A stretch of 64,000 nucleotides of DNA from Bdellovibrionota bacterium (GTDB lineage: Bacteria > Bdellovibrionota_C > UBA2361 > JBIKWN01), in NCBI GenBank assembly GCA_044356295.1, contig JBIKWN010000006.1, positions 7,134-71,133 of the forward strand, given 5' to 3'. A program made the position numbers and the translations under genes. The notes below the pieces were generated by a model. The model was not told where the DNA came from. It searched no databases and was given only the letters and a program-made list of their open reading frames with translations. Position 1 is the first letter of the stretch. Each line of letters opens with the position of its first letter. Shown in pieces: positions 2,533-17,761 of this stretch.

Positions 2533-3429
2533 TCACCCCTTAATGCCCCTATCTTTGCAAAATACTTCATATGCCTTCTGAATATCAAGAAATCGCTCAT
2601 TGGAAGCCTTAAGCATATGAGAGGGAATATCCTTCGGAAGAACATCTGGATGATACTGTCGAACGAGCTGTCGATATTTCCTTTTTATCGAAGACGTTGA
2701 ATCAGAGGCATCGACTCCAAGGGCTAATGCCCAGGCAAGATCTGAAAGAGGTTTATGTCTTGATTGATTAGACTTATTATTTTCGCTTTTTTTGTAATTT
2801 TCTTGTCGTTGTTTCGATTGTTGATCATATTTTGCTTTTTCAGATTCTCTTTGATTCTGTTCTGCATTTTGATGGAACTCTTTTTCTTTCTCTTGCTGCG
2901 TAGGGGCACCTTCGATCTTAGTTTTCCAATTATGATGGCGCGCTGTTAACCGAGAAATAGTTCTAGGAGAGAGCTGAAAAATAATCGCTGCTTCTGATAA
3001 TAATATCTGTTCAGACTTTGTAAGAATATTATCAACATACGCCATAGAGAGAAGCACATCAAAAGCATTTTCAATAAGGGCACGTTGATTTTTGAATCGT
3101 AAAAAAAATTCTTTCGCCAAATCGCTAAATGATTTTCGAGAGTGCTGTACATGAAATAAAACTTTGCGGGCAGACTTTTTCTGAGCAGACGTCAAGGAAA
3201 AATGTGTCTCTAATAGATCTAGAAAAAGTTTTAGTTCAGGTTGGCTAATTGCACCATCAACAGCAGCCATTTTAGCTGTCATCGAAATTATTCCATTAAA
3301 GAACCTTCTTCCCTGGAATGGGCGAAGCCTCAGTGATAGCACTGACCAAAAAGGCCAATCAACACTATCAAGCTTAGTGACTTCTTGTGGATCAAGTTTT
3401 TTGTTTTTCTTTCGAAACAGTCGAAGCAT
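2533..3429 (-). CDS. DjlA-like co-chaperone: TerB-like N-domain, charged linker and C-terminal J-domain
   Basis: C-terminal J-domain with HPD (SIKRKYRQLVRQYHPDVLP). The central Q/E/K-rich low-complexity linker explains the antisense junk ORFs here. Confidence 0.65.
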   Translation of the reverse strand: MLRLFRKKNKKLDPQEVTKLDSVDWPFWSVLSLRLRPFQGRRFFNGIISMTAKMAAVDGAISQPELKLFLDLLETHFSLTSAQKKSARKVLFHVQHSRKSFSDLAKEFFLRFKNQRALIENAFDVLLSMAYVDNILTKSEQILLSEAAIIFQLSPRTISRLTARHHNWKTKIEGAPTQQEKEKEFHQNAEQNQRESEKAKYDQQSKQRQENYKKSENNKSNQSRHKPLSDLAWALALGVDASDSTSSIKRKYRQLVRQYHPDVLPKDIPSHMLKASNERFLDIQKAYEVFCKDRGIKG

Positions 3430-3432
3430 ACA

Positions 3433-6165
3433 TTAATGTGCTTGACCCCAATTCTGCCCGACACCTACTTCAGCTTTTAACGGCACAAGAAATGTCACAA
3501 CATGCTCCATTTCTTTTTGAATCCTTACTTTCATAAGTTCCGCATGTTCTTTTGGTGCTTCGAAAACGAGCTCATCATGAACTTGAGAAATCATTGTTAA
3601 TGGAAGATTTTCTTCTCGGATAGCTTTATCAATAGAAATCATTGCAAGCTTTACTATATCTGCAGCAGTACCTTGAATTGGGGCATTCACAGCAATTCGA
3701 TTTTGAAACCCTTTGTCTCGTTCAGAAAATTCTGAAGGTTGTATAAATCTTTTACGCCCAAAAACAGTAGTAACACACCCAAGGGTAGCGGCATCGGATT
3801 CAAGTTTAGCGAACAACTTCTTTACACCAGGATACTGATTGAAATAATTTTGGATATACATCTCTGCTTCACGCATGGAAACTGAGAGCTCTTTCGATAA
3901 ACGAAATGCACCCATCCCATAAATAATTCCAAAATTAAGTGTTTTTCCGACCCGTCGTTGTTCAGTGGTAACATCAAAAAGCGGAGGAACTGCAAAGATT
4001 TCTCGGGCTGTTTTCGTATGAATATCAATACCCTGATGAAAAGCATCGATTAAATTTTTATCTTCACTCATATGAGCCAGCACTCTAAGCTCAATCTGTG
4101 AATAGTCAGCAGATAAGATGACAGAGCCAGGTTCTGCGATAAACGCCTGTCTAATCTTTGCGCCTTCTGTGGTTTGAATCGGAATATTTTGAAGGTTTGG
4201 ATCAGATGAAGAAAGACGTCCTGTGGCAGTTACGGTTTGATTAAACTTTGAATGAATTCGATCTGTTTTTTTATTAATAGATGTTGGCAGTGAATCAACA
4301 TAGGTGCTTTTTAATTTAAAAAGGGTTCTATGTCTTAAGATCTCTTTAGGAACTTCATGACGTTCCGCTAAAATTTCAAGGACACTAGCATCAGTTGAAA
4401 ATCCAGTTTTTGTCTTCTTTACACCTTTGGTAGATATCCCAAGTTTTGTAAATAAAACTTCGCCGAGCTGTTTTGGAGAATTAAAATTAAACTCTTCTCC
4501 GACCATTGCAATAATTCGCTCGCGAACTAATTCTAATTCAGCAGTTATTTCTTCACTCATCCCTGCGAGGAATTTTTCATCAACTTTTACTCCGGCTAAC
4601 TCCATTCTAGAAAGGACTGGCACTAGCGGCATTTCGATTGTTTTGAAAACATTTGTAAGCTCTTTTTCTTCCAGTAGCGGGAAAAGCACTTTATAAAGAT
4701 CATATGCAACGAGGGCATCCTCAGCAGAATACTCTGCTGCCGCTTCTATAGGGACAGCTTGGAATCCTTCCTCTACATTTTGCAGAGATTCATATTCAAT
4801 AACACCACGTGAAAGGTACTCAGCAGCAAGCGCTGTCATACCAAATCCATTTTTATCTGGATTTAAAAGATACGCTGCAACCATTGTGCAAAAAAGATTA
4901 CCTTCTACTTGTACACCCTGAGCTGCGAGAATACTTAGATCAAATTTAAGATTTTGTCCTATCTTCAAAGAAGTTTTATCGGAAAATACAGGGTTTATCT
5001 CTTTTTTAAAAAGTTCCCACGGAATCTGTTCTGATACTTTTTCACCATTGGTATGTGAAAAAGGAATGTAGAAGTTAGAATCACCTCCAAATGAGAAAGA
5101 CATACCAACAACGTCTGCACAGTGCGGATCAAGAGAAGTTGTTTCAATGTCGAACGCAAATTCCTTCTGTGAAGCTATTGAAGTAAGAAAAGAATTTAAA
5201 TCATTTTTATAGATTGTTTTATATAAAGATGAGCTTATCGTTGATGCAGGCTTTTCATATTTCAGAGAAAGCTCTTTTAAAAGAGAGGTAAACTCAAGTT
5301 TCGAAAAAAGAGTTTCTACTGCATCTTTGTCAGGACTTTTTCTTGCACAAAAAATTAAAAGCTCTTCATCTGATTTATCTCGAAGATCAATTGGAGCGTC
5401 GGTAAGTATCTCAACTAGTTTTTTACAGAGGCGCAGAGTTTCTTTATTTTCTGAAATATTCTCAGCAAGTTTCTCTCTACTTCGAATTGTTTTATCAACT
5501 TTAATCTGATCTACTGCAGCAATAATTGACTCGATCGAGCCGTACTGTTGAACAAGTTGAGTCGCAGTTTTAGGACCCACTCCGCTCAGTCCTGGTATAT
5601 TATCTGACGTGTCACCCATAAGGGAAAGGACATCGACAACTTGGGAAGGAGGCACACCAAACTTTTCAATAACGCCTTCCGCTCCAAACTTTTTATCCTT
5701 CATCGTATCCCAGATTGATACGTTATCATTAACTAACTGACAGATATCTTTATCACCAGTAATTATACAGACAGGATGTCCAAGCTCAGAAAATCTTTTT
5801 GAAAGTGTTCCAATAATATCATCAGCTTCAAATCCAGGAAGCTCAAGCACTGGCAATCCTAATACGGATGACAGTTCACGAAAAACTGGCATCTGTGGAA
5901 CCAATTCAGGGGGACACTCTGCTCGGTTTGCTTTATAAGCTTCATAAAGATCATTTCGAAATGTTTTTTTCCCTGCATCGAAAATCATAACGACATGTAC
6001 AGAATCTGAAAGCTTTAAAAGCTTTCCAAGCATTCGGGTAAATCCGTAAAGGGCGTTAGTCGGAAAGCCTTCCTTTGTAGATAAAGGAGCTACGGCATAA
6101 AAGGCTCTAAAAATGTAGCCACTGCCGTCAATGAGGTAAATCTTTTCTTTTTGGTTCTCGGTCAT
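3433..6165 (-). CDS. polA: DNA polymerase I
   Basis: 910 aa. 5'-3' exonuclease N-domain (LIDGSGYIFRAFYA), a 3'-5' exo domain and the polymerase motifs (DYSQIELR, QVHDELVFE). Confidence 0.95.
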   Translation of the reverse strand: MTENQKEKIYLIDGSGYIFRAFYAVAPLSTKEGFPTNALYGFTRMLGKLLKLSDSVHVVMIFDAGKKTFRNDLYEAYKANRAECPPELVPQMPVFRELSSVLGLPVLELPGFEADDIIGTLSKRFSELGHPVCIITGDKDICQLVNDNVSIWDTMKDKKFGAEGVIEKFGVPPSQVVDVLSLMGDTSDNIPGLSGVGPKTATQLVQQYGSIESIIAAVDQIKVDKTIRSREKLAENISENKETLRLCKKLVEILTDAPIDLRDKSDEELLIFCARKSPDKDAVETLFSKLEFTSLLKELSLKYEKPASTISSSLYKTIYKNDLNSFLTSIASQKEFAFDIETTSLDPHCADVVGMSFSFGGDSNFYIPFSHTNGEKVSEQIPWELFKKEINPVFSDKTSLKIGQNLKFDLSILAAQGVQVEGNLFCTMVAAYLLNPDKNGFGMTALAAEYLSRGVIEYESLQNVEEGFQAVPIEAAAEYSAEDALVAYDLYKVLFPLLEEKELTNVFKTIEMPLVPVLSRMELAGVKVDEKFLAGMSEEITAELELVRERIIAMVGEEFNFNSPKQLGEVLFTKLGISTKGVKKTKTGFSTDASVLEILAERHEVPKEILRHRTLFKLKSTYVDSLPTSINKKTDRIHSKFNQTVTATGRLSSSDPNLQNIPIQTTEGAKIRQAFIAEPGSVILSADYSQIELRVLAHMSEDKNLIDAFHQGIDIHTKTAREIFAVPPLFDVTTEQRRVGKTLNFGIIYGMGAFRLSKELSVSMREAEMYIQNYFNQYPGVKKLFAKLESDAATLGCVTTVFGRKRFIQPSEFSERDKGFQNRIAVNAPIQGTAADIVKLAMISIDKAIREENLPLTMISQVHDELVFEAPKEHAELMKVRIQKEMEHVVTFLVPLKAEVGVGQNWGQAH

Positions 6166-8040: not shown

Positions 8041-8271
8041 ATGACTCGCGATGCAAAACAACTTCTAGATGCAGCACTTGGATTATCTGAGCAAGATAGA
8101 GCTACTATTGCATCTTCACTCATTGAGAGCTTAGAACAACCCAGCGATATAGATGTCGAAGAAGCCTGGCAGGAGGAAGTAACAAAACGATTAAATGACA
8201 TTCAATCTGGTAACATAAAGCCAATCTCTTGGCTTGATGCTCGTAAAGCAATTACAGATACAATCAAATAA
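8041..8271 (+). CDS. Putative addiction-module antitoxin component (small alpha-helical protein with LSEQDRA motif)
   Basis: 76 aa. LLDAALGLSEQDRATIASSLIESL resembles the 'putative addiction module component' family usually paired with RelE/ParE toxins. A RelE/ParE-like ORF follows 6 bp downstream. Confidence 0.6.
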   Translation: MTRDAKQLLDAALGLSEQDRATIASSLIESLEQPSDIDVEEAWQEEVTKRLNDIQSGNIKPISWLDARKAITDTIK

Positions 8272-8276
8272 TAGCA

Positions 8277-8465
8277 ATGGAAGTATTTCTCCATCCTGAA
8301 GCGCTTAATGAAGCTCGGGCAGCGTTTCTGTGGTATTCCACTCGCAGATTTTTATTTCGGCGATTTCCTTTCAGCTTAATCTACTTTATTCAAGAAACAA
8401 GCATTCTTGTTGTAGCGGTTGCACACGGTCGTCGTAAACCAGGTTACTGGAATAATCGAAAATAA
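8277..8465 (+). pseudogene. RelE/ParE-family toxin remnant with an internal deletion
   Basis: The C-terminus RFPFSLIYFIQETSILVVAVAHGRRKPGYW matches the RelE/ParE core (RFPYSIIYRV...VLAVAHQRRRPGYW). The protein is only 62 aa against about 95 for the family. The N-terminal HPEA...AAFLWY is fused directly to RRFPFS, so roughly 30 aa are missing. Confidence 0.5.
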
Positions 8466-9146: not shown

Positions 9147-9165
9147 TACATAACGCCGGCACTTC

Positions 9166-13022: not shown

Positions 13023-14870
13023 TTACGTTAATAATCGCAACGCCAATCCAGGTGATTGATTAGCTTGAGCGAGCACTGATGTTGCAACTTGCTGTGAAAT
13101 TTTCAATCGCGTTGCCTCTGCAACTTCGCTACTGACATCACTATCCATAATTCTAGAATGAGCCTCTTTGTAGTTGATACTCGTCGACTGTACAACATTT
13201 ATGACTGCTGCCGCGCGCGACATTGTTGCTCCAACTCGTCCTAGTGTTTGTGAGATGCTTTCAATTAACGTACGAGAATTATCCAAAGACTGTCTAGCTC
13301 CTTGTTGAGTGAGAATATAATTTTTTGCAAGGTAGTTAGTTTGGGCCCCGTTTCCATAATTAAGATCAAGACGTCCACCTGTCAGCGAAGCCACTATTAC
13401 ATCTTTGACCCCATCACCAGTAAAGTCTGCAATTAAATTTGCATCCGATAATACCCCAGAGCTGTAGGCCCAAGTTTGAGAAATCTTAAATGTTCCATCG
13501 CCGTTACCTAAAATAATTCCTGCACCTGAAAAGCCTGTAATTAAGTAATCAGCAAAACCGTCATTATTAATATCCTGGGACGTCATGTTAGCTAATTGAC
13601 CTATGCCAGAAAAATTTATAGTTGTGTTTGCTCTAAAAGTTCCATCGCCGTTTCCTCGTAGGAAATTTACAGTTCCACCTCCTGGGCCAATTACAACAAT
13701 GTCTAAATTGCCATCCCTATCAAAATCTTGGGCGACTGATGCACCAGATACACTATTAACAAAATAAGTGCTCATGGCTCGAAGTGTCCCGTTGGAATTC
13801 GCAAGAATAACTCCGATTTGATTGCTGGAATTATCAGAAAGTTGGATGTCATCTTTTCCATCGCCGTTAAAGTCACCAACTGAAAGGGCGACACCATTGA
13901 AGGATGTGGCATAGCTCACTGCTGCCCTAAATGTACCATTTCCATTTCCACTGAGAACACTAATTGCGTTACCACCTGATGCAACGAGGTCAGCTATTCC
14001 ATCGCCGTTTATATCTCCAGTAGAAACTGACGTAACCGTAAATCCTTGCGCGTAAGTAACTGCCGAGGCAAAAGTATCATTGCCATTATTCAAAGCAATT
14101 CGAATATTTGTCGTATGATTGTTAACCCAATCCAGTTTACCATCACCATTTACATCAATGAGGCTTGCACCAGAGGGACCAGGCGCACCATTAGCGAATA
14201 TCGTCACACCACTACTAAAAGATCCATCACCGTTTGATAAGAATATCTGACCGTAGATACTTAATAGATCAGCTCTTCCGTCGCGGTTGTAATCGATGGC
14301 GTTAAAACCTCGCTGATTCGCCATTGCTTGTGTACTTGTTCCTGTAAATGTTCCATCCCCTGCAGCTCCGTTGATTCCAGAACCTTGTAAATATAAAAGT
14401 GAATTATCAAGACCACTTCCGAATTGGAATCTTACCCCTTGGGAATCTACGGAACTTAATAATTTTATGCCATTAAATGATGTGATCGAAACTATTCTGT
14501 TAAATTCTTCTGTAAGCCTATCAGACTCTTGCTGCATTGATTTTCGCTGCGACAATGAAAAAGATCCGTTTGCTGCTTGCTCAGCTAATTCAGCTTGGCG
14601 TTGTGCAATTTCTGACAACCCTCCAAGAGTCCCCTGAACAATATTGAGCATACTAACGCCATCGTTAATATTACGTAGCCCCTGCGAAAAAATTCTTGTT
14701 GAAGCATTAAGCTCTAACGCGATAGCGAGTCCTGCTGCATCATCGGCTGCTTTATTAATTCTCTGCCCAGACGCAAGTCGTTCAGAGATCGAAGCAAGCT
14801 TATTCGAGCTTTGCTCAAGTCCCCGCTGCGCGGTTAAAGAACTGATATTACTGCCTAATGTTATAGCCAA
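13023..14870 (-). CDS. Flagellin-family protein with a central FG-GAP beta-propeller insertion
   Basis: N-terminus (M)AITLGSNISSLTAQRGLEQSSNKLASISERLASGQRINKAADDAAGLAIA is the flagellin N-domain. C-terminus AHSRIMDSDVSSEVAEATRLKISQQVATSVLAQANQSPGLALRLL is the flagellin C-domain. Between them lie about seven DxNGDGxxD / GNGDGTF FG-GAP-type repeats. The start codon is TTG (revcomp of caa at 14868-14870). Confidence 0.85.
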   Translation of the reverse strand: MAITLGSNISSLTAQRGLEQSSNKLASISERLASGQRINKAADDAAGLAIALELNASTRIFSQGLRNINDGVSMLNIVQGTLGGLSEIAQRQAELAEQAANGSFSLSQRKSMQQESDRLTEEFNRIVSITSFNGIKLLSSVDSQGVRFQFGSGLDNSLLYLQGSGINGAAGDGTFTGTSTQAMANQRGFNAIDYNRDGRADLLSIYGQIFLSNGDGSFSSGVTIFANGAPGPSGASLIDVNGDGKLDWVNNHTTNIRIALNNGNDTFASAVTYAQGFTVTSVSTGDINGDGIADLVASGGNAISVLSGNGNGTFRAAVSYATSFNGVALSVGDFNGDGKDDIQLSDNSSNQIGVILANSNGTLRAMSTYFVNSVSGASVAQDFDRDGNLDIVVIGPGGGTVNFLRGNGDGTFRANTTINFSGIGQLANMTSQDINNDGFADYLITGFSGAGIILGNGDGTFKISQTWAYSSGVLSDANLIADFTGDGVKDVIVASLTGGRLDLNYGNGAQTNYLAKNYILTQQGARQSLDNSRTLIESISQTLGRVGATMSRAAAVINVVQSTSINYKEAHSRIMDSDVSSEVAEATRLKISQQVATSVLAQANQSPGLALRLLT

Positions 14871-14895
14871 ACTTAAATGATACTCCTCATCTTCT

Positions 14896-14925
14896 TGATC
14901 GGCTTTTTTTGAATATTTCTAAAAT
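14896..14925 (-). promoter_or_regulatory. Sigma-28 (FliA)-like promoter upstream of the flagellin gene
   Basis: Minus strand reads tTAGAaatattcaaaaaaaGCCGATCA. This gives a -10 of GCCGATCA against the consensus GCCGATAA, with a TAAA-like TAGA about 14 nt upstream. It lies about 25-55 nt upstream of the TTG start. Confidence 0.45.
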
Positions 14926-15128
14926 TTCTCTTTGTTTTTTTAGGAATAATTGAAAGGAAAATGTGCTAGTGTTTCGGTAAGTTATGAGGGATGCTTTAAA
15001 ATTGAAGATATTATTTATGTTTTTTGCAATTTGCGGCTAACAAAAATTCGTACGACCACGGCCATAAAGTTAAGGGACGTCGAAACTCTTTTTGGTACAA
15101 GATAACTTTCAATCTGATTTAAGCTAAT

Positions 15129-15170
15129 GAAGTACTATATAATCCAAGTTACCTTGTACCCATTATTTCT
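15129..15170. repeat. Direct repeat, left copy, flanking the 15.2-17.0 kb islet
   Basis: gaagtactatataatccaagttaccttgtacccattatttct. Compare gaaggcactatatattccgagttacctagtcccaattatttct at 16996-17038, about 88% identical. Confidence 0.6.
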
Positions 15171-15194
15171 TTTTTTAGAAAAATTGATTTGACC

Positions 15195-15605
15195 ATGCAT
15201 AAATCTTTTCCTATCAAGTCTTTTTTGATACTTGGAGTTATTTCTCTATGCATATTTATTAATAATATGGCTGACAGCTGCTTTGTTAAACTGAAATCCG
15301 CCGATAGTAAATTATCAGATGAGCTTAGTTATGAATTATTTGAATTATGGATGTCACCTCAATATGAAAATGTATCTGCAGAGAATCTTGTGAGAGAATT
15401 TCTTTCGAAATATAGCACCCCACAAGAAATTGCAGATCTGAATCCGGTATATAAATTATATCAAGAGAATATTGCTCTTGGTATCAATGATGGTGATTGG
15501 GATATACTTGCGCGGCGCAGTAAACTTAATGAACTTAATGGACGGGAGTTAATAAACGCTGCAGTTAAGAAATTTCTGTTACAAAATGAGATAGCTTGTA
15601 AATAG
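15195..15605 (+). CDS. Small exported/membrane-anchored hypothetical protein
   Basis: ATG at 15195. The track ORF begins at a TTG at 15189. Hydrophobic N-terminus SFLILGVISLCIFI. No recognisable domain. Confidence 0.5.
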   Translation: MHKSFPIKSFLILGVISLCIFINNMADSCFVKLKSADSKLSDELSYELFELWMSPQYENVSAENLVREFLSKYSTPQEIADLNPVYKLYQENIALGINDGDWDILARRSKLNELNGRELINAAVKKFLLQNEIACK

Positions 15606-15753
15606 AGTTCGTCCTTAATATGGCTATCTAAGATTTTTATTAGTGAAATTTTTGGTACGAGGTAACTTTTGATTCGATCTTAAACCACTGTAACTGTTAT
15701 ACAATAAGAGTTACAGTGTACCAGTTACATTTCTCCGCGTTATCTTGTACTAG

Positions 15754-16266
15754 TTATTTTTTGAGTGAATTATGCAAATAAGAAGAAAAAGCTCTTTCAA
15801 TAACTTCTGTTTCATCAATATTTTTTTCAATTGCACGACGTTTAATTTCGGCAAGTGTTGCAGGCTTTAATCTCCAATTAGTTCTGACTCGTCGTTCATT
15901 GACAGGAATAGATCGTTTGTCTGGTAACTCAATGTTCGCCCACCGCTTTAGATCTTTATAGGGCAATCCAGCGAGATCCGGACCAACATCTTTATTTTTT
16001 TTAATACATTCTAACACCAGGCTTAGTTTTTCTGGAATCTTATCCCAGTTTAGAAAAGATCGAGGGAATCGAAGCATTGCCGCTGGTAGAACCTCTAACA
16101 CTCTGGGTTCAATTTCTGTACCTATTTTGAGTGCTTCTAGAATATCGACTTTAATTGTAGGTAATGGTTTTACATCTTCAACTCCCAATAATCCTTTACC
16201 AACAAAAAATCCAAATATCCTTTCGGTTTTTTCGTCCCACTGATTGATATAATTATTTTTAGCCAT
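15754..16266 (-). CDS. Hypothetical protein; downstream gene of a two-gene cassette
   Basis: 170 aa, 9 bp after the upstream gene. The C-terminal 40 aa (RRVRTNWRLKPATLAEIKRRAIEKNIDETEVIERAFSSYLH) look like a ribbon-helix-helix segment and also contain an R-x6-H motif. These are weak motif-level hints only. Confidence 0.55.
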   Translation of the reverse strand: MAKNNYINQWDEKTERIFGFFVGKGLLGVEDVKPLPTIKVDILEALKIGTEIEPRVLEVLPAAMLRFPRSFLNWDKIPEKLSLVLECIKKNKDVGPDLAGLPYKDLKRWANIELPDKRSIPVNERRVRTNWRLKPATLAEIKRRAIEKNIDETEVIERAFSSYLHNSLKK

Positions 16267-16275
16267 ACTTTTAAT

Positions 16276-16782
16276 CTATAGCTTTATAGTCTTTGTAATT
16301 GTGAAATAGGTAATGTCCCCACCATTGCTTATTATCTTGCTCGCTAAAACATCACCAAAAAGTTTTAAAGCATCACTAACGAGATGTTTATTTTTTTCTT
16401 TAGCCTTTATTGCTTTACTGGTAATCGCAGAAATAGGATCTAAGTGACTCACTTTTACCCAGGTTGAATCGTAATACTGAATAAAATTAGAATCCTTTGG
16501 AATCCAGATCTCTGTACTGAGTTCATCAAAAGCTAAGCCATTTGATTTCAATACATCACGAAAAACTTGAGTCTCACCCCATTTTCCCTTTAGCAATGCA
16601 TCAACATCTTTGGTATATGCCAACCGAATCTTCGAGCTGACTTCTTCATTCATCAGCAAGCTCATCTGTCCTAGGACATTAATCTCTATCTTATTATCCG
16701 ACATTACAGAATCACCTAAATCTTCACGACGTAATCTGAGTGCTTCTTCAAGATCTTCTATGACTTTATTTATTAATTTCAT
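16276..16782 (-). CDS. Hypothetical protein; upstream gene of the two-gene cassette
   Basis: 168 aa. LGQMSL...(17 aa)...KDVDALL is faintly reminiscent of the hG[GS]...DxD nucleotidyltransferase-fold signature. This is unconfirmed. Confidence 0.55.
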   Translation of the reverse strand: MKLINKVIEDLEEALRLRREDLGDSVMSDNKIEINVLGQMSLLMNEEVSSKIRLAYTKDVDALLKGKWGETQVFRDVLKSNGLAFDELSTEIWIPKDSNFIQYYDSTWVKVSHLDPISAITSKAIKAKEKNKHLVSDALKLFGDVLASKIISNGGDITYFTITKTIKL

Positions 16783-16995
16783 CTTTCCTAAGCACTATTT
16801 TACATTAAAAAATATATGACGTACAGACATTATTAAGTATTTGATATTACTCATTATTATGTTGTAATTTATATATTTCTAGAGGATTAGTTGCTAGTTC
16901 GAAAATCAAAATAGATGACAACATTGTTACTGTAATCATAAAGCAAGCGAAGCTACCCTTTTCCAGAAATTTTCTTCAATATTATTTAGCCTACT

Positions 16996-17038
16996 GAAGG
17001 CACTATATATTCCGAGTTACCTAGTCCCAATTATTTCT
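16996..17038. repeat. Direct repeat, right copy, flanking the islet
   Basis: See the left copy at 15129-15170. Confidence 0.6.
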
Positions 17039-17135
17039 CCTTGAAAGAGTACTAGAAGCTGCATGTAAATTATAATTATAAAATTAAGGTGATTCCCATT
17101 GAGTGGAACACCTACTATGGGTAGGTAACTATTTA

Positions 17136-17621
17136 CTAATCCCTAAAATTCGTAAACTGCAATTCAATATCCTTAACTTCAGAGCGCAAAAACTGAATCA
17201 CTGCTTGCAGATCGTCCCTCTTCTTACCCATTATCCGTAATTGATTGCCCTGAATCTGAGAATTCACCTTCACTTTTTGACCTTTAATAAGTTTATTAAC
17301 TTTTTTCAGATCGTCATCACATAATCCCTGTTTGATCAATACTTCTTGTTTAATTGTATCGCCTCCGGCAGGGAATGGATCTTTAAATTCTACAGACTTC
17401 AAACTGACTTTCCGTTTTGCAAGTTTTTCCATCAACATCGTCTGCACTGCACTTAAACGCATCTGGTCATCAGCGTGGACATTAATCTGTTCTTCAACAA
17501 GTTCAACAGTAACGTTGGTTCCCTTAAAATCATACCGAGTTGCAATTTCTCGCTGCACCTGATCAACCGCATTACGAACTTCTTGCATATCAACTTCTGA
17601 AACGACATCAAAGGAAGGCAT
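17136..17621 (-). CDS. yajQ: YajQ-family (UPF0234) nucleotide-binding protein
   Basis: MPSFDVVSEVDMQEVRNAVDQVQREIATRYDFKG is the characteristic YajQ N-terminus. The start is set at the MPSF methionine; the track ORF begins 17 codons earlier. Confidence 0.8.
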   Translation of the reverse strand: MPSFDVVSEVDMQEVRNAVDQVQREIATRYDFKGTNVTVELVEEQINVHADDQMRLSAVQTMLMEKLAKRKVSLKSVEFKDPFPAGGDTIKQEVLIKQGLCDDDLKKVNKLIKGQKVKVNSQIQGNQLRIMGKKRDDLQAVIQFLRSEVKDIELQFTNFRD

Positions 17622-17761
17622 ACTCATATTCTCCAAAAAATTTTCATCTGGACTAGAAAAGCCAGAAGTCAATTAAATCTAAACATCTTTTATACCAAGA
17701 AAATGAGTTTCTGGTCGAATTTCTTTACCAACGAAATAAAAACAGGTAGCGTCATTTAAGA

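Follow-up and report, generated by a model that had tools for sequence, protein, structure and literature searches.

This analysis concerns a 64,000-nucleotide stretch of contig JBIKWN010000006.1 from a Bdellovibrionota bacterium (hereafter the window), in which an islet of ~1.9 kb lies among housekeeping genes, between the flagellin gene and yajQ. The islet harbors an orphan gene, ORF138, and a rare two-gene module or cassette, P168–P170, and it is marked by direct repeats that a first-pass annotation had taken for the scar of an insertion or recombination event. Two copies of the repeat are present where that annotation placed them, with 86% identity over 37 nt between 15134–15170 and 17002–17038; its figure of ~88% is somewhat high, as a by-eye count over the full 42/43 nt gives 36/43 aligned columns (about 84%). 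The three genes and the AT-rich flanks (14871–15188 and 16783–17135) that it described are likewise as it described them. From left to right, the features of the islet are:

15089–15170, no strand: unit A, which contains the left repeat of the first-pass annotation (15129–15170) and an inverted pair of sites at 15093–15107 (minus) and 15147–15161 (plus), with TATAAT at 15138–15143 and a weak site at 15074–15087 (minus).

15195–15605, plus strand: ORF138, 136 amino acids (aa) from ATG, or 138 aa from a TTG at 15189, with a hydrophobic N-terminus.

15649–15732, no strand: unit B, a third, diverged copy between ORF138 and the 3′ end of the cassette, with sites at 15653–15667 (minus) and 15709–15723 (plus), an inner palindrome at 15686–15718 and a weak site at 15739–15751 (plus) that overlaps the end of P170.

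15754–16266, minus strand: P170, with an N-terminal helical domain of ~115 aa and a C-terminal ribbon-helix-helix (RHH) domain (about residues 125–165); proposed antitoxin/repressor.

16276–16782, minus strand: P168, with a nucleotidyltransferase (NTase) fold (G38-Q39 ... D59-x-D61 ... S122-K123); proposed toxin.

16797–16857, minus strand: proximal promoter/operator block of the cassette, conserved in the family according to an upstream alignment of seven loci; its hexamers, read from the sequence, are a -10 TAAAAT (16797–16802) and, after a 17-nt spacer, a -35 TGTACG (16820–16825), with AATAATGTC ahead of the -35.

16972–17038, no strand: unit C, which contains the right repeat of the first-pass annotation (16996–17038) and one strong site at 17015–17029 (plus).

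The repeats are both longer and more numerous than first described. The similarity between units A and C reaches leftwards to about 65 bp (roughly 15106–15170 versus 16972–17038), and neither unit B nor the inverted partner sites had been recorded before. A nhmmer profile of the three units matches exactly these three places in 64 kb, and a degenerate 37-mer derived from the two original copies finds 2 sites in 64 kb and 0 in 100 shuffles. The units are 65–86% identical to one another, with a longest exact match of ~9–10 nt between A and C. What they have in common is a directed 15-bp motif, (A)GTTAC-N3-GTACC(A), i.e., AGTTAC-N3-GTACCA, in which one GTTAC half is joined to one GGTAC half with the same asymmetry throughout; the site can alternatively be parsed as two tandem heptads, GGTACnn-GGTAACn. 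Its central triplet varies between copies (CTT, AGT and CTA, with CTT in A and CTA in C), and in units A and B the core has an inverted partner 54–56 bp to its left that unit C lacks. The exact core is observed 4 times where 0.11 would be expected (200 simulations gave at most 2), and a position weight matrix recovers five sites at ≥17 bits: 15093 (minus), 15147 (plus), 15653 (minus), 15709 (plus) and 17015 (plus). All strong sites thus lie inside the islet, with weaker copies at 15074 and 15739, and the next best matrix score in the 64 kb is 13.4.

The way in which the units have drifted is informative. Conservation is limited to the two 5-bp boxes; the 3-bp spacer and the interiors of the units vary, and the arm spacers of unit B are not complementary to one another, which is the pattern of a protein-binding site rather than of an RNA or DNA stem. 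Single-strand folding of units A and B pairs just the outer 14–15 bp and leaves an interior of ~37 nt unpaired, and unit C does not fold; a search of Rfam over 14500–17500 returned no credible RNA family. Between the convergent ORF138 and P170 genes, the 15686–15718 segment of unit B forms a near-perfect 15-bp palindrome (CACTGTAACTGTTAT / ATAAGAGTTACAGTG) that might serve as a bidirectional terminator, though it has no T-run. Two other readings of the repeats were tried and rejected. Sigma-54 and sigma-28 promoters do not account for the motif, since the units, inspected by eye, lack a GC at -12 and also lack GCCGATAA, the sigma-28 -10 consensus. An invertible switch made of the 24-nt inverted repeats 15146–15169 and 15645–15668 that flank ORF138 does not agree with the lack of a recombinase or with the equal gene orientation in three independent contigs of the same strain (the window, L001 and an NCBI/JGI contig).

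None of the three islet proteins has a significant match in Pfam, NCBIfam, PADLOC or PHROGs, and profile searches of the PDB with them gave no match. ORF138 has no homologue outside its own species among 5.8 billion proteins, and its codon usage is gene-like (+0.34 in frame versus -0.48 and -0.89 out of frame). P168 and P170, by comparison, belong to small families (30 and 19 clusters, respectively, at 90% identity), and a P168 profile search found 231 representative clusters among 1.84 billion. The core of P168 has the alpha-beta-alpha-beta-alpha-beta fold common to ANT, MenT and MNT, which places it in the nucleotidyltransferase (Pol-beta-like) superfamily; its matches include the toxins MenT1 (5.3), MenT4 (4.8) and TglT (4.4), and also JHP933-like, TM1012 and LnuA. 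It carries the catalytic signature hG[GS] ... D-x-[DE], with Q rather than G/S after the G. In members as distant as ~20% identity, G38, Q39, T57, S122 and K123 never vary, and conservation of D59 and D61 is at least 90%. This predicted fold would make P168 a minimal member of the MenT/AbiEii/ANT structural class of nucleotidyltransferases.

The partner protein is less familiar. The N-terminal ~115 residues of P170 gave no fold match, and its C-terminal ~40 residues match the RHH proteins TacA2, MazE4, ParD/PrpA, FitA and TraM; in Pfam, RHH_1 is detected in 6 of 18 members of the family and a NikA-like domain in 4 of 18 (best E-value, 6e-5). The P168 and P170 genes are co-oriented and 9 bp apart in the window, and they are paired at every locus examined, so that two hallmarks of type II toxin-antitoxin (TA) systems are present, namely small, tightly linked, co-occurring genes and an RHH DNA-binding domain in one partner (P170). 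A functional link between the two is supported by P0193, a 323-aa protein of the representative library in which residues 6–120 match the P168 family and residues 167–314 the P170 family (hhalign probability 98.4), and which represents a natural fusion or else a read-through between the two partners.

The known systems closest to this pair are MenAT and AbiE, nucleotidyltransferase TA systems whose toxins MenT1–4 and AbiEii belong to DUF1814 (PMC7450476, PMC10435456). P168 differs from these toxins in having no sequence-level match to DUF1814/AbiEii/MenT (Pfam PF08843) in Pfam, NCBIfam or PADLOC, in scoring an hhalign probability of 0.2 against an AbiEii encoded near one of its own homologues (L011) and in its length of about 165 aa, as against 190–300 aa. 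The NTase gene comes first in the window cassette, and P170, with its C-terminal RHH and novel N-terminal domain, is unlike the AbiEi and MenA types. Nor does the pair resemble the HEPN-MNT (type VII) systems, as P170 has neither the conserved Rx4-6H motif nor a HEPN fold match and bears an RHH domain that HEPN toxins lack.

The P168–P170 pair is found intact in eight different neighborhoods:

Window: flagellin gene and yajQ.

L003/L034: radical-SAM gene and fur-katG.

L004–7: MobA/MobL relaxase, TraG/TraD and tyrosine integrase.

L008–10: adjoining an AAA_14/DUF4143 ATPase.

L011–13: two AbiE systems, with a phage capsid gene nearby.

L014–16: OmpA and DXP synthase.

L035: a DUF423 neighbor.

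L036: an acetyltransferase neighbor.

In all seven loci measured, the GC content of the cassette is lower than that of the rest of the locus by 1–7 points (35.1% versus 38.7% in the window). This mobility and low GC content are the behavior of toxin-antitoxin or defense-type cargo and, together with the restriction of ORF138 to a single species, they bear out the earlier proposal that the cassette was laterally acquired. Searches of sequenced plasmids, of phages and of IMG/VR contigs found no P168 homologues. At L004, the same mobile element encodes a SMODS nucleotidyltransferase and a Mob_CxxC_CxxC protein (2612–4044) beside TraG, TraD and the MobA/MobL relaxase; judging from these genes, this is probably defense-type cargo on a conjugative or mobilizable element.

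The motif is not confined to the window. The closest cassette, that of L003/L034 (74%/81% aa identity), has other neighbors and a host whose GC content differs, and three strong copies of the motif accompany it: two of them, at 107 and 326 bp upstream of the cassette, fall within a 33-bp repeat (91% identical), and the third follows katG, 52 bp upstream of an EamA gene. The other loci that were fetched, ~400 kb in total, contain no strong sites. Only the window, L003 and P0040 (the closest partial homologue, 89% identical) have the same predicted DNA-reading strand in the RHH domain, VRTNWRLKPATL; all other members of the family have a different one, and those of their loci that were fetched lack the motif.

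Several of the sites overlap promoter-like elements. In each of the two genomes, one motif site overlaps the -35 and spacer of an element that faces the cassette: TTGGGA-17-TATAGT on the minus strand of unit C, ~215 bp upstream of P168–P170, and TTGTTA-17-TTTAAA in L003, the latter recognized by eye. The first-pass annotation had argued that the right-hand repeat has no gene to serve, which is correct for the plus strand and incorrect for the minus strand, where the P168–P170 cassette lies downstream. The cassette loci also share a conserved block from about -75 to the start codon and, since the cassette thus has a conserved proximal promoter of its own, unit C would be an additional regulatory element and not its sole promoter. 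Within the proximal promoter region, 16826–16840 (AATAATGTCTGTAC) resembles the minus-strand sequences of units A and C (AATAATGGGTAC and AATAATTGGGAC); on the strength of this resemblance, the units may be diverged duplicates of the cassette promoter/operator.

The reading we favor, at a little short of an even chance, is that the islet consists of an acquired TA-like module and an orphan gene, and that its repeats are duplicated regulatory units carrying operator sites for which P170 is the likeliest binder. What the analysis shows are the repeats, a motif confined to the islet, the protein folds, a mobile module and the presence of the motif beside the closest homologue; toxicity, the binder of the sites and promoter direction are proposals added to these. 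P168 would be the likely toxin, perhaps acting by nucleotidylation of an RNA or protein target; the N-terminal domain of P170 would neutralize it and the C-terminal RHH domain would bind DNA. The direct repeats would then represent three copies of a ~80-bp regulatory unit built around the directed 15-bp site, and the sites would be operators, most likely for P170 dimers, that overlap promoter-like hexamers. Unit C would act as a distal promoter toward the cassette and unit A as the promoter region of ORF138, the units having presumably arisen by local duplication and not by insertion.

Repressors of this kind are known. The RHH proteins omega of pSM19035, ParG, CopG and Arc/Mnt bind arrays of short repeats, those of the omega type being tandem heptads. 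The window likewise has several sites readable as tandem 7-bp repeats (GGTACnn GGTAACn), in direct and inverted orientation and overlapping promoter hexamers, and it likewise encodes an RHH protein next door as a candidate binder. It differs from these systems in that the RHH of P170 is C-terminal to a 115-aa domain and in that some sites in the window and in L003 lie 0.6–3 kb from the cassette.

Several observations weigh against this proposal. The orientation and distance of the motif are unlike in the two genomes (-235 and one orientation in the window; -107 and -326 and the other orientation in L003), and some sites are far from the cassette, namely unit A at ~600 bp and the third L003 site at 2.9 kb, upstream of the EamA gene; a TA autoregulator does not usually have such remote sites. 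A transcription factor common to the two hosts may be the sole reason why the window and L003 both have the motif. As the autoregulatory operator of P170, the palindrome of the family-wide proximal promoter is at least as good a candidate. Finally, the codon usage of the islet is host-like, so any acquisition was not recent.

The first alternative, an extension of the first-pass model that we regard as unlikely, is that the units are att-type sites left by the integration of one or two non-autonomous tandem cassettes (ORF138 and the NTase–RHH pair), with a recombinase acting in trans that recognizes GTTAC-N3-GTACC. The geometry is suggestive, as the three direct-orientation units delimit two modules, direct-orientation copies of the motif bracket the cassette plus fur-katG in L003, an integrase and a relaxase stand beside the cassette in L004–7, and homologous cassettes are bracketed by direct repeats in L035 and L011. 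In L035, 67-bp direct repeats at 1–67 and 1368–1434 (93% identity, spacing 1367) bracket the cassette exactly; this repeat holds a 9-bp GC stem, GGCCCGCCC...GGGCGGGCC (fold z of -4 to -5), and could be a repetitive extragenic palindromic (REP)-like element or a recombination site of that genome. At 9164–10750 of L011, the cassette is enclosed by 161-bp direct repeats (88% identity, spacing 1415) that contain tRNA 3′ fragments, three fragments in all, with a tRNA-Arg(cct) at 13499–13574, 3 kb away, and two AbiEi/AbiEii systems and a phage capsid gene alongside. Repeats with a tRNA 3′ fragment are the classic signature of integrase att sites, and the region looks like an integration hotspot with tandem islets. 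The window resembles such att-bounded, non-autonomous islets (like cis-mobilizable elements, CIME) and their tandem accretion at tRNA att sites in having direct repeats around cargo with no recombinase inside, and L011 shows exactly this layout for a homologous cassette. The window differs in lacking a tRNA at the site, an identical core and an integrase, and no empty-site allele was found among the relatives compared.

Several points count against att sites in the window. Scans of genome contigs and metagenomes with YajQ found no empty flagellin–yajQ site; the closest relatives, at 78% identity, are a metagenome-assembled genome (MAG), ‘Deltaproteobacteria bacterium UBA2409’, and one metagenome contig, neither of which shares synteny with the window. 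Exact-protein look-ups of YajQ, flagellin and P168 returned only the same arrangement in what is effectively one strain (L001 and L002 belong to it, with one single-nucleotide polymorphism), and no excision circle was found either. There is no recombinase among the Pfam calls for ~14 kb around the islet, no integrase by probing the 64 kb, no transposase in the window and no tRNA at the islet. The flanking copies of attL and attR share an identical core, whereas the central 3 bp of the units differ and the copies are 65–86% identical; a recent crossover would have left identical cores. The overlap of a tyrosine recombinase is 6–8 bp and that of a serine recombinase 2 bp, so that a 5-3-5 or 12-3-12 site with an odd 3-bp center fits neither. 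Lastly, the flanking repeats of L035 and L011 bear no sequence relationship to the units of the window, which means that there is no common site, and L004, L008 and L014 have no flanking repeats. The first-pass view of the repeats as an insertion or recombination scar is not supported here: there are three units and not two, a short core resembling a binding site is kept while the remainder drifts, the core also accompanies the closest cassette homologue in another genome and no recombinase is detected in the window.

A second alternative is that the motif is the SOS (LexA) box of the host, or the site of another host regulator, and that the islet is a damage-inducible TA module; we consider this doubtful. 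The reported LexA box of Bdellovibrio bacteriovorus is TTAC-N3-GTAA (PMC8565304), and the core TTAC-N3-GTAC has the same length and the same 3-bp spacer and agrees with it at 7/8 specified positions, with the caveat that this box may not be that of the host. The nearest named relative, an unclassified deltaproteobacterial MAG, also counts in favor. Mobile TA modules under SOS-box control exist, e.g., higBA of IncC plasmids (PMC8265657), the window sites overlap promoter-like hexamers and one L003 site is upstream of the unrelated EamA gene, all of which would suit a host regulator. The right half of the motif is, however, always GTAC(C) and not GTAA, and a LexA dimer, being symmetric, would not be expected to have sites that are all asymmetric in the same way. 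It would also be atypical for five to seven boxes to crowd into 2 kb with none in the remaining 62 kb. Probing of the window and the fetched loci found no lexA, recA or dinB.

The remaining alternatives fare worse. As a long shot, the units could be the recombination sites of an undescribed integron-like, non-attC cassette system with a recombinase acting in trans and modules in tandem (ORF138 and the NTase–RHH pair in the window; the pair and fur-katG in L003), in which the NTase–RHH pair would be an addiction module that stabilizes the array. Still less probable is that A and B are miniature inverted-repeat transposable elements of ~77 bp, C being a truncated one, whose position around the cassette is incidental: A and B are homologous over their full length and end in 15-bp terminal inverted repeats, TGGTACRAGRTAACTT / AAGTTACNNNGTACC, but the copies number just three and sit within 2 kb, with none in the remaining 62 kb of the window, whereas a dispersed element of this kind or a REP-type repeat would be scattered in many copies; no target-site duplication is visible, and the core occurs beside the L003 cassette as solo sites without an element body. 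Integron-type attC sites, which would make the islet a two-cassette array without an integrase (a cluster of attC sites lacking integron-integrases, CALIN), are the least credible of all: a structured repeat does follow each module, the inner boxes do read ...TAAC / GTTA... and integrons typically carry TA cassettes that have promoters of their own. Against this, the folding described above does not give the near-fully paired hairpin, with extrahelical bases, of RYYYAAC / GTTRRRY sites, the AAC/GTT boxes are inner where they should be outer, GTTACCT departs from GTTRRRY and the window has no intI.

Some observations on the neighboring genes stand apart from these questions. The flagellin (13023–14870, minus strand, 615 aa) has ordinary N- and C-terminal helices around a central insert of ~390 residues made of FG-GAP/VCBS-type repeats (Pfam FG-GAP_3, 1.6e-40, 7 stretches), from which a beta-propeller-like domain on the surface of the filament can be predicted. 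A sigma-28-type -10 at 14896–14903 (minus strand GCCGATCA; 7/8 match to GCCGATAA) lies ~25 bp upstream of its GAGGAG ribosome-binding site, so that the gene probably has a proximal class-III promoter of its own and does not need unit A. On the other side of the islet, the start of yajQ (17136–17672, minus strand) is ambiguous: the longest open reading frame, from TTG, gives 178 aa, the NCBI product has 161 aa from an ATG at M18, and relatives align from residue 16–17 onward only. Near efp, at about 8041–8465 (8884–9308 in L001), there is a second small gene pair in which one product matches PF09720 (Unstab_antitox) and its neighbor has 62 aa; judged by this match, it may be another toxin-antitoxin module in the window.

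The islet itself is of a common kind, a small acquired TA or defense-type module. P168 and P170 are a rare pair of families for which neither Pfam nor NCBIfam has a model, and they join a MenT-like NTase fold to a new RHH-bearing partner; as such, they would extend the NTase toxin systems by a further branch. The repeated 15-bp site, one base off the Bdellovibrio LexA box, provides a concrete operator candidate common to two genomes. For scans of genomes more generally, the locus is a reason for caution, as direct repeats around a small islet can be arrays of regulatory sites and are not necessarily the scars of insertion.

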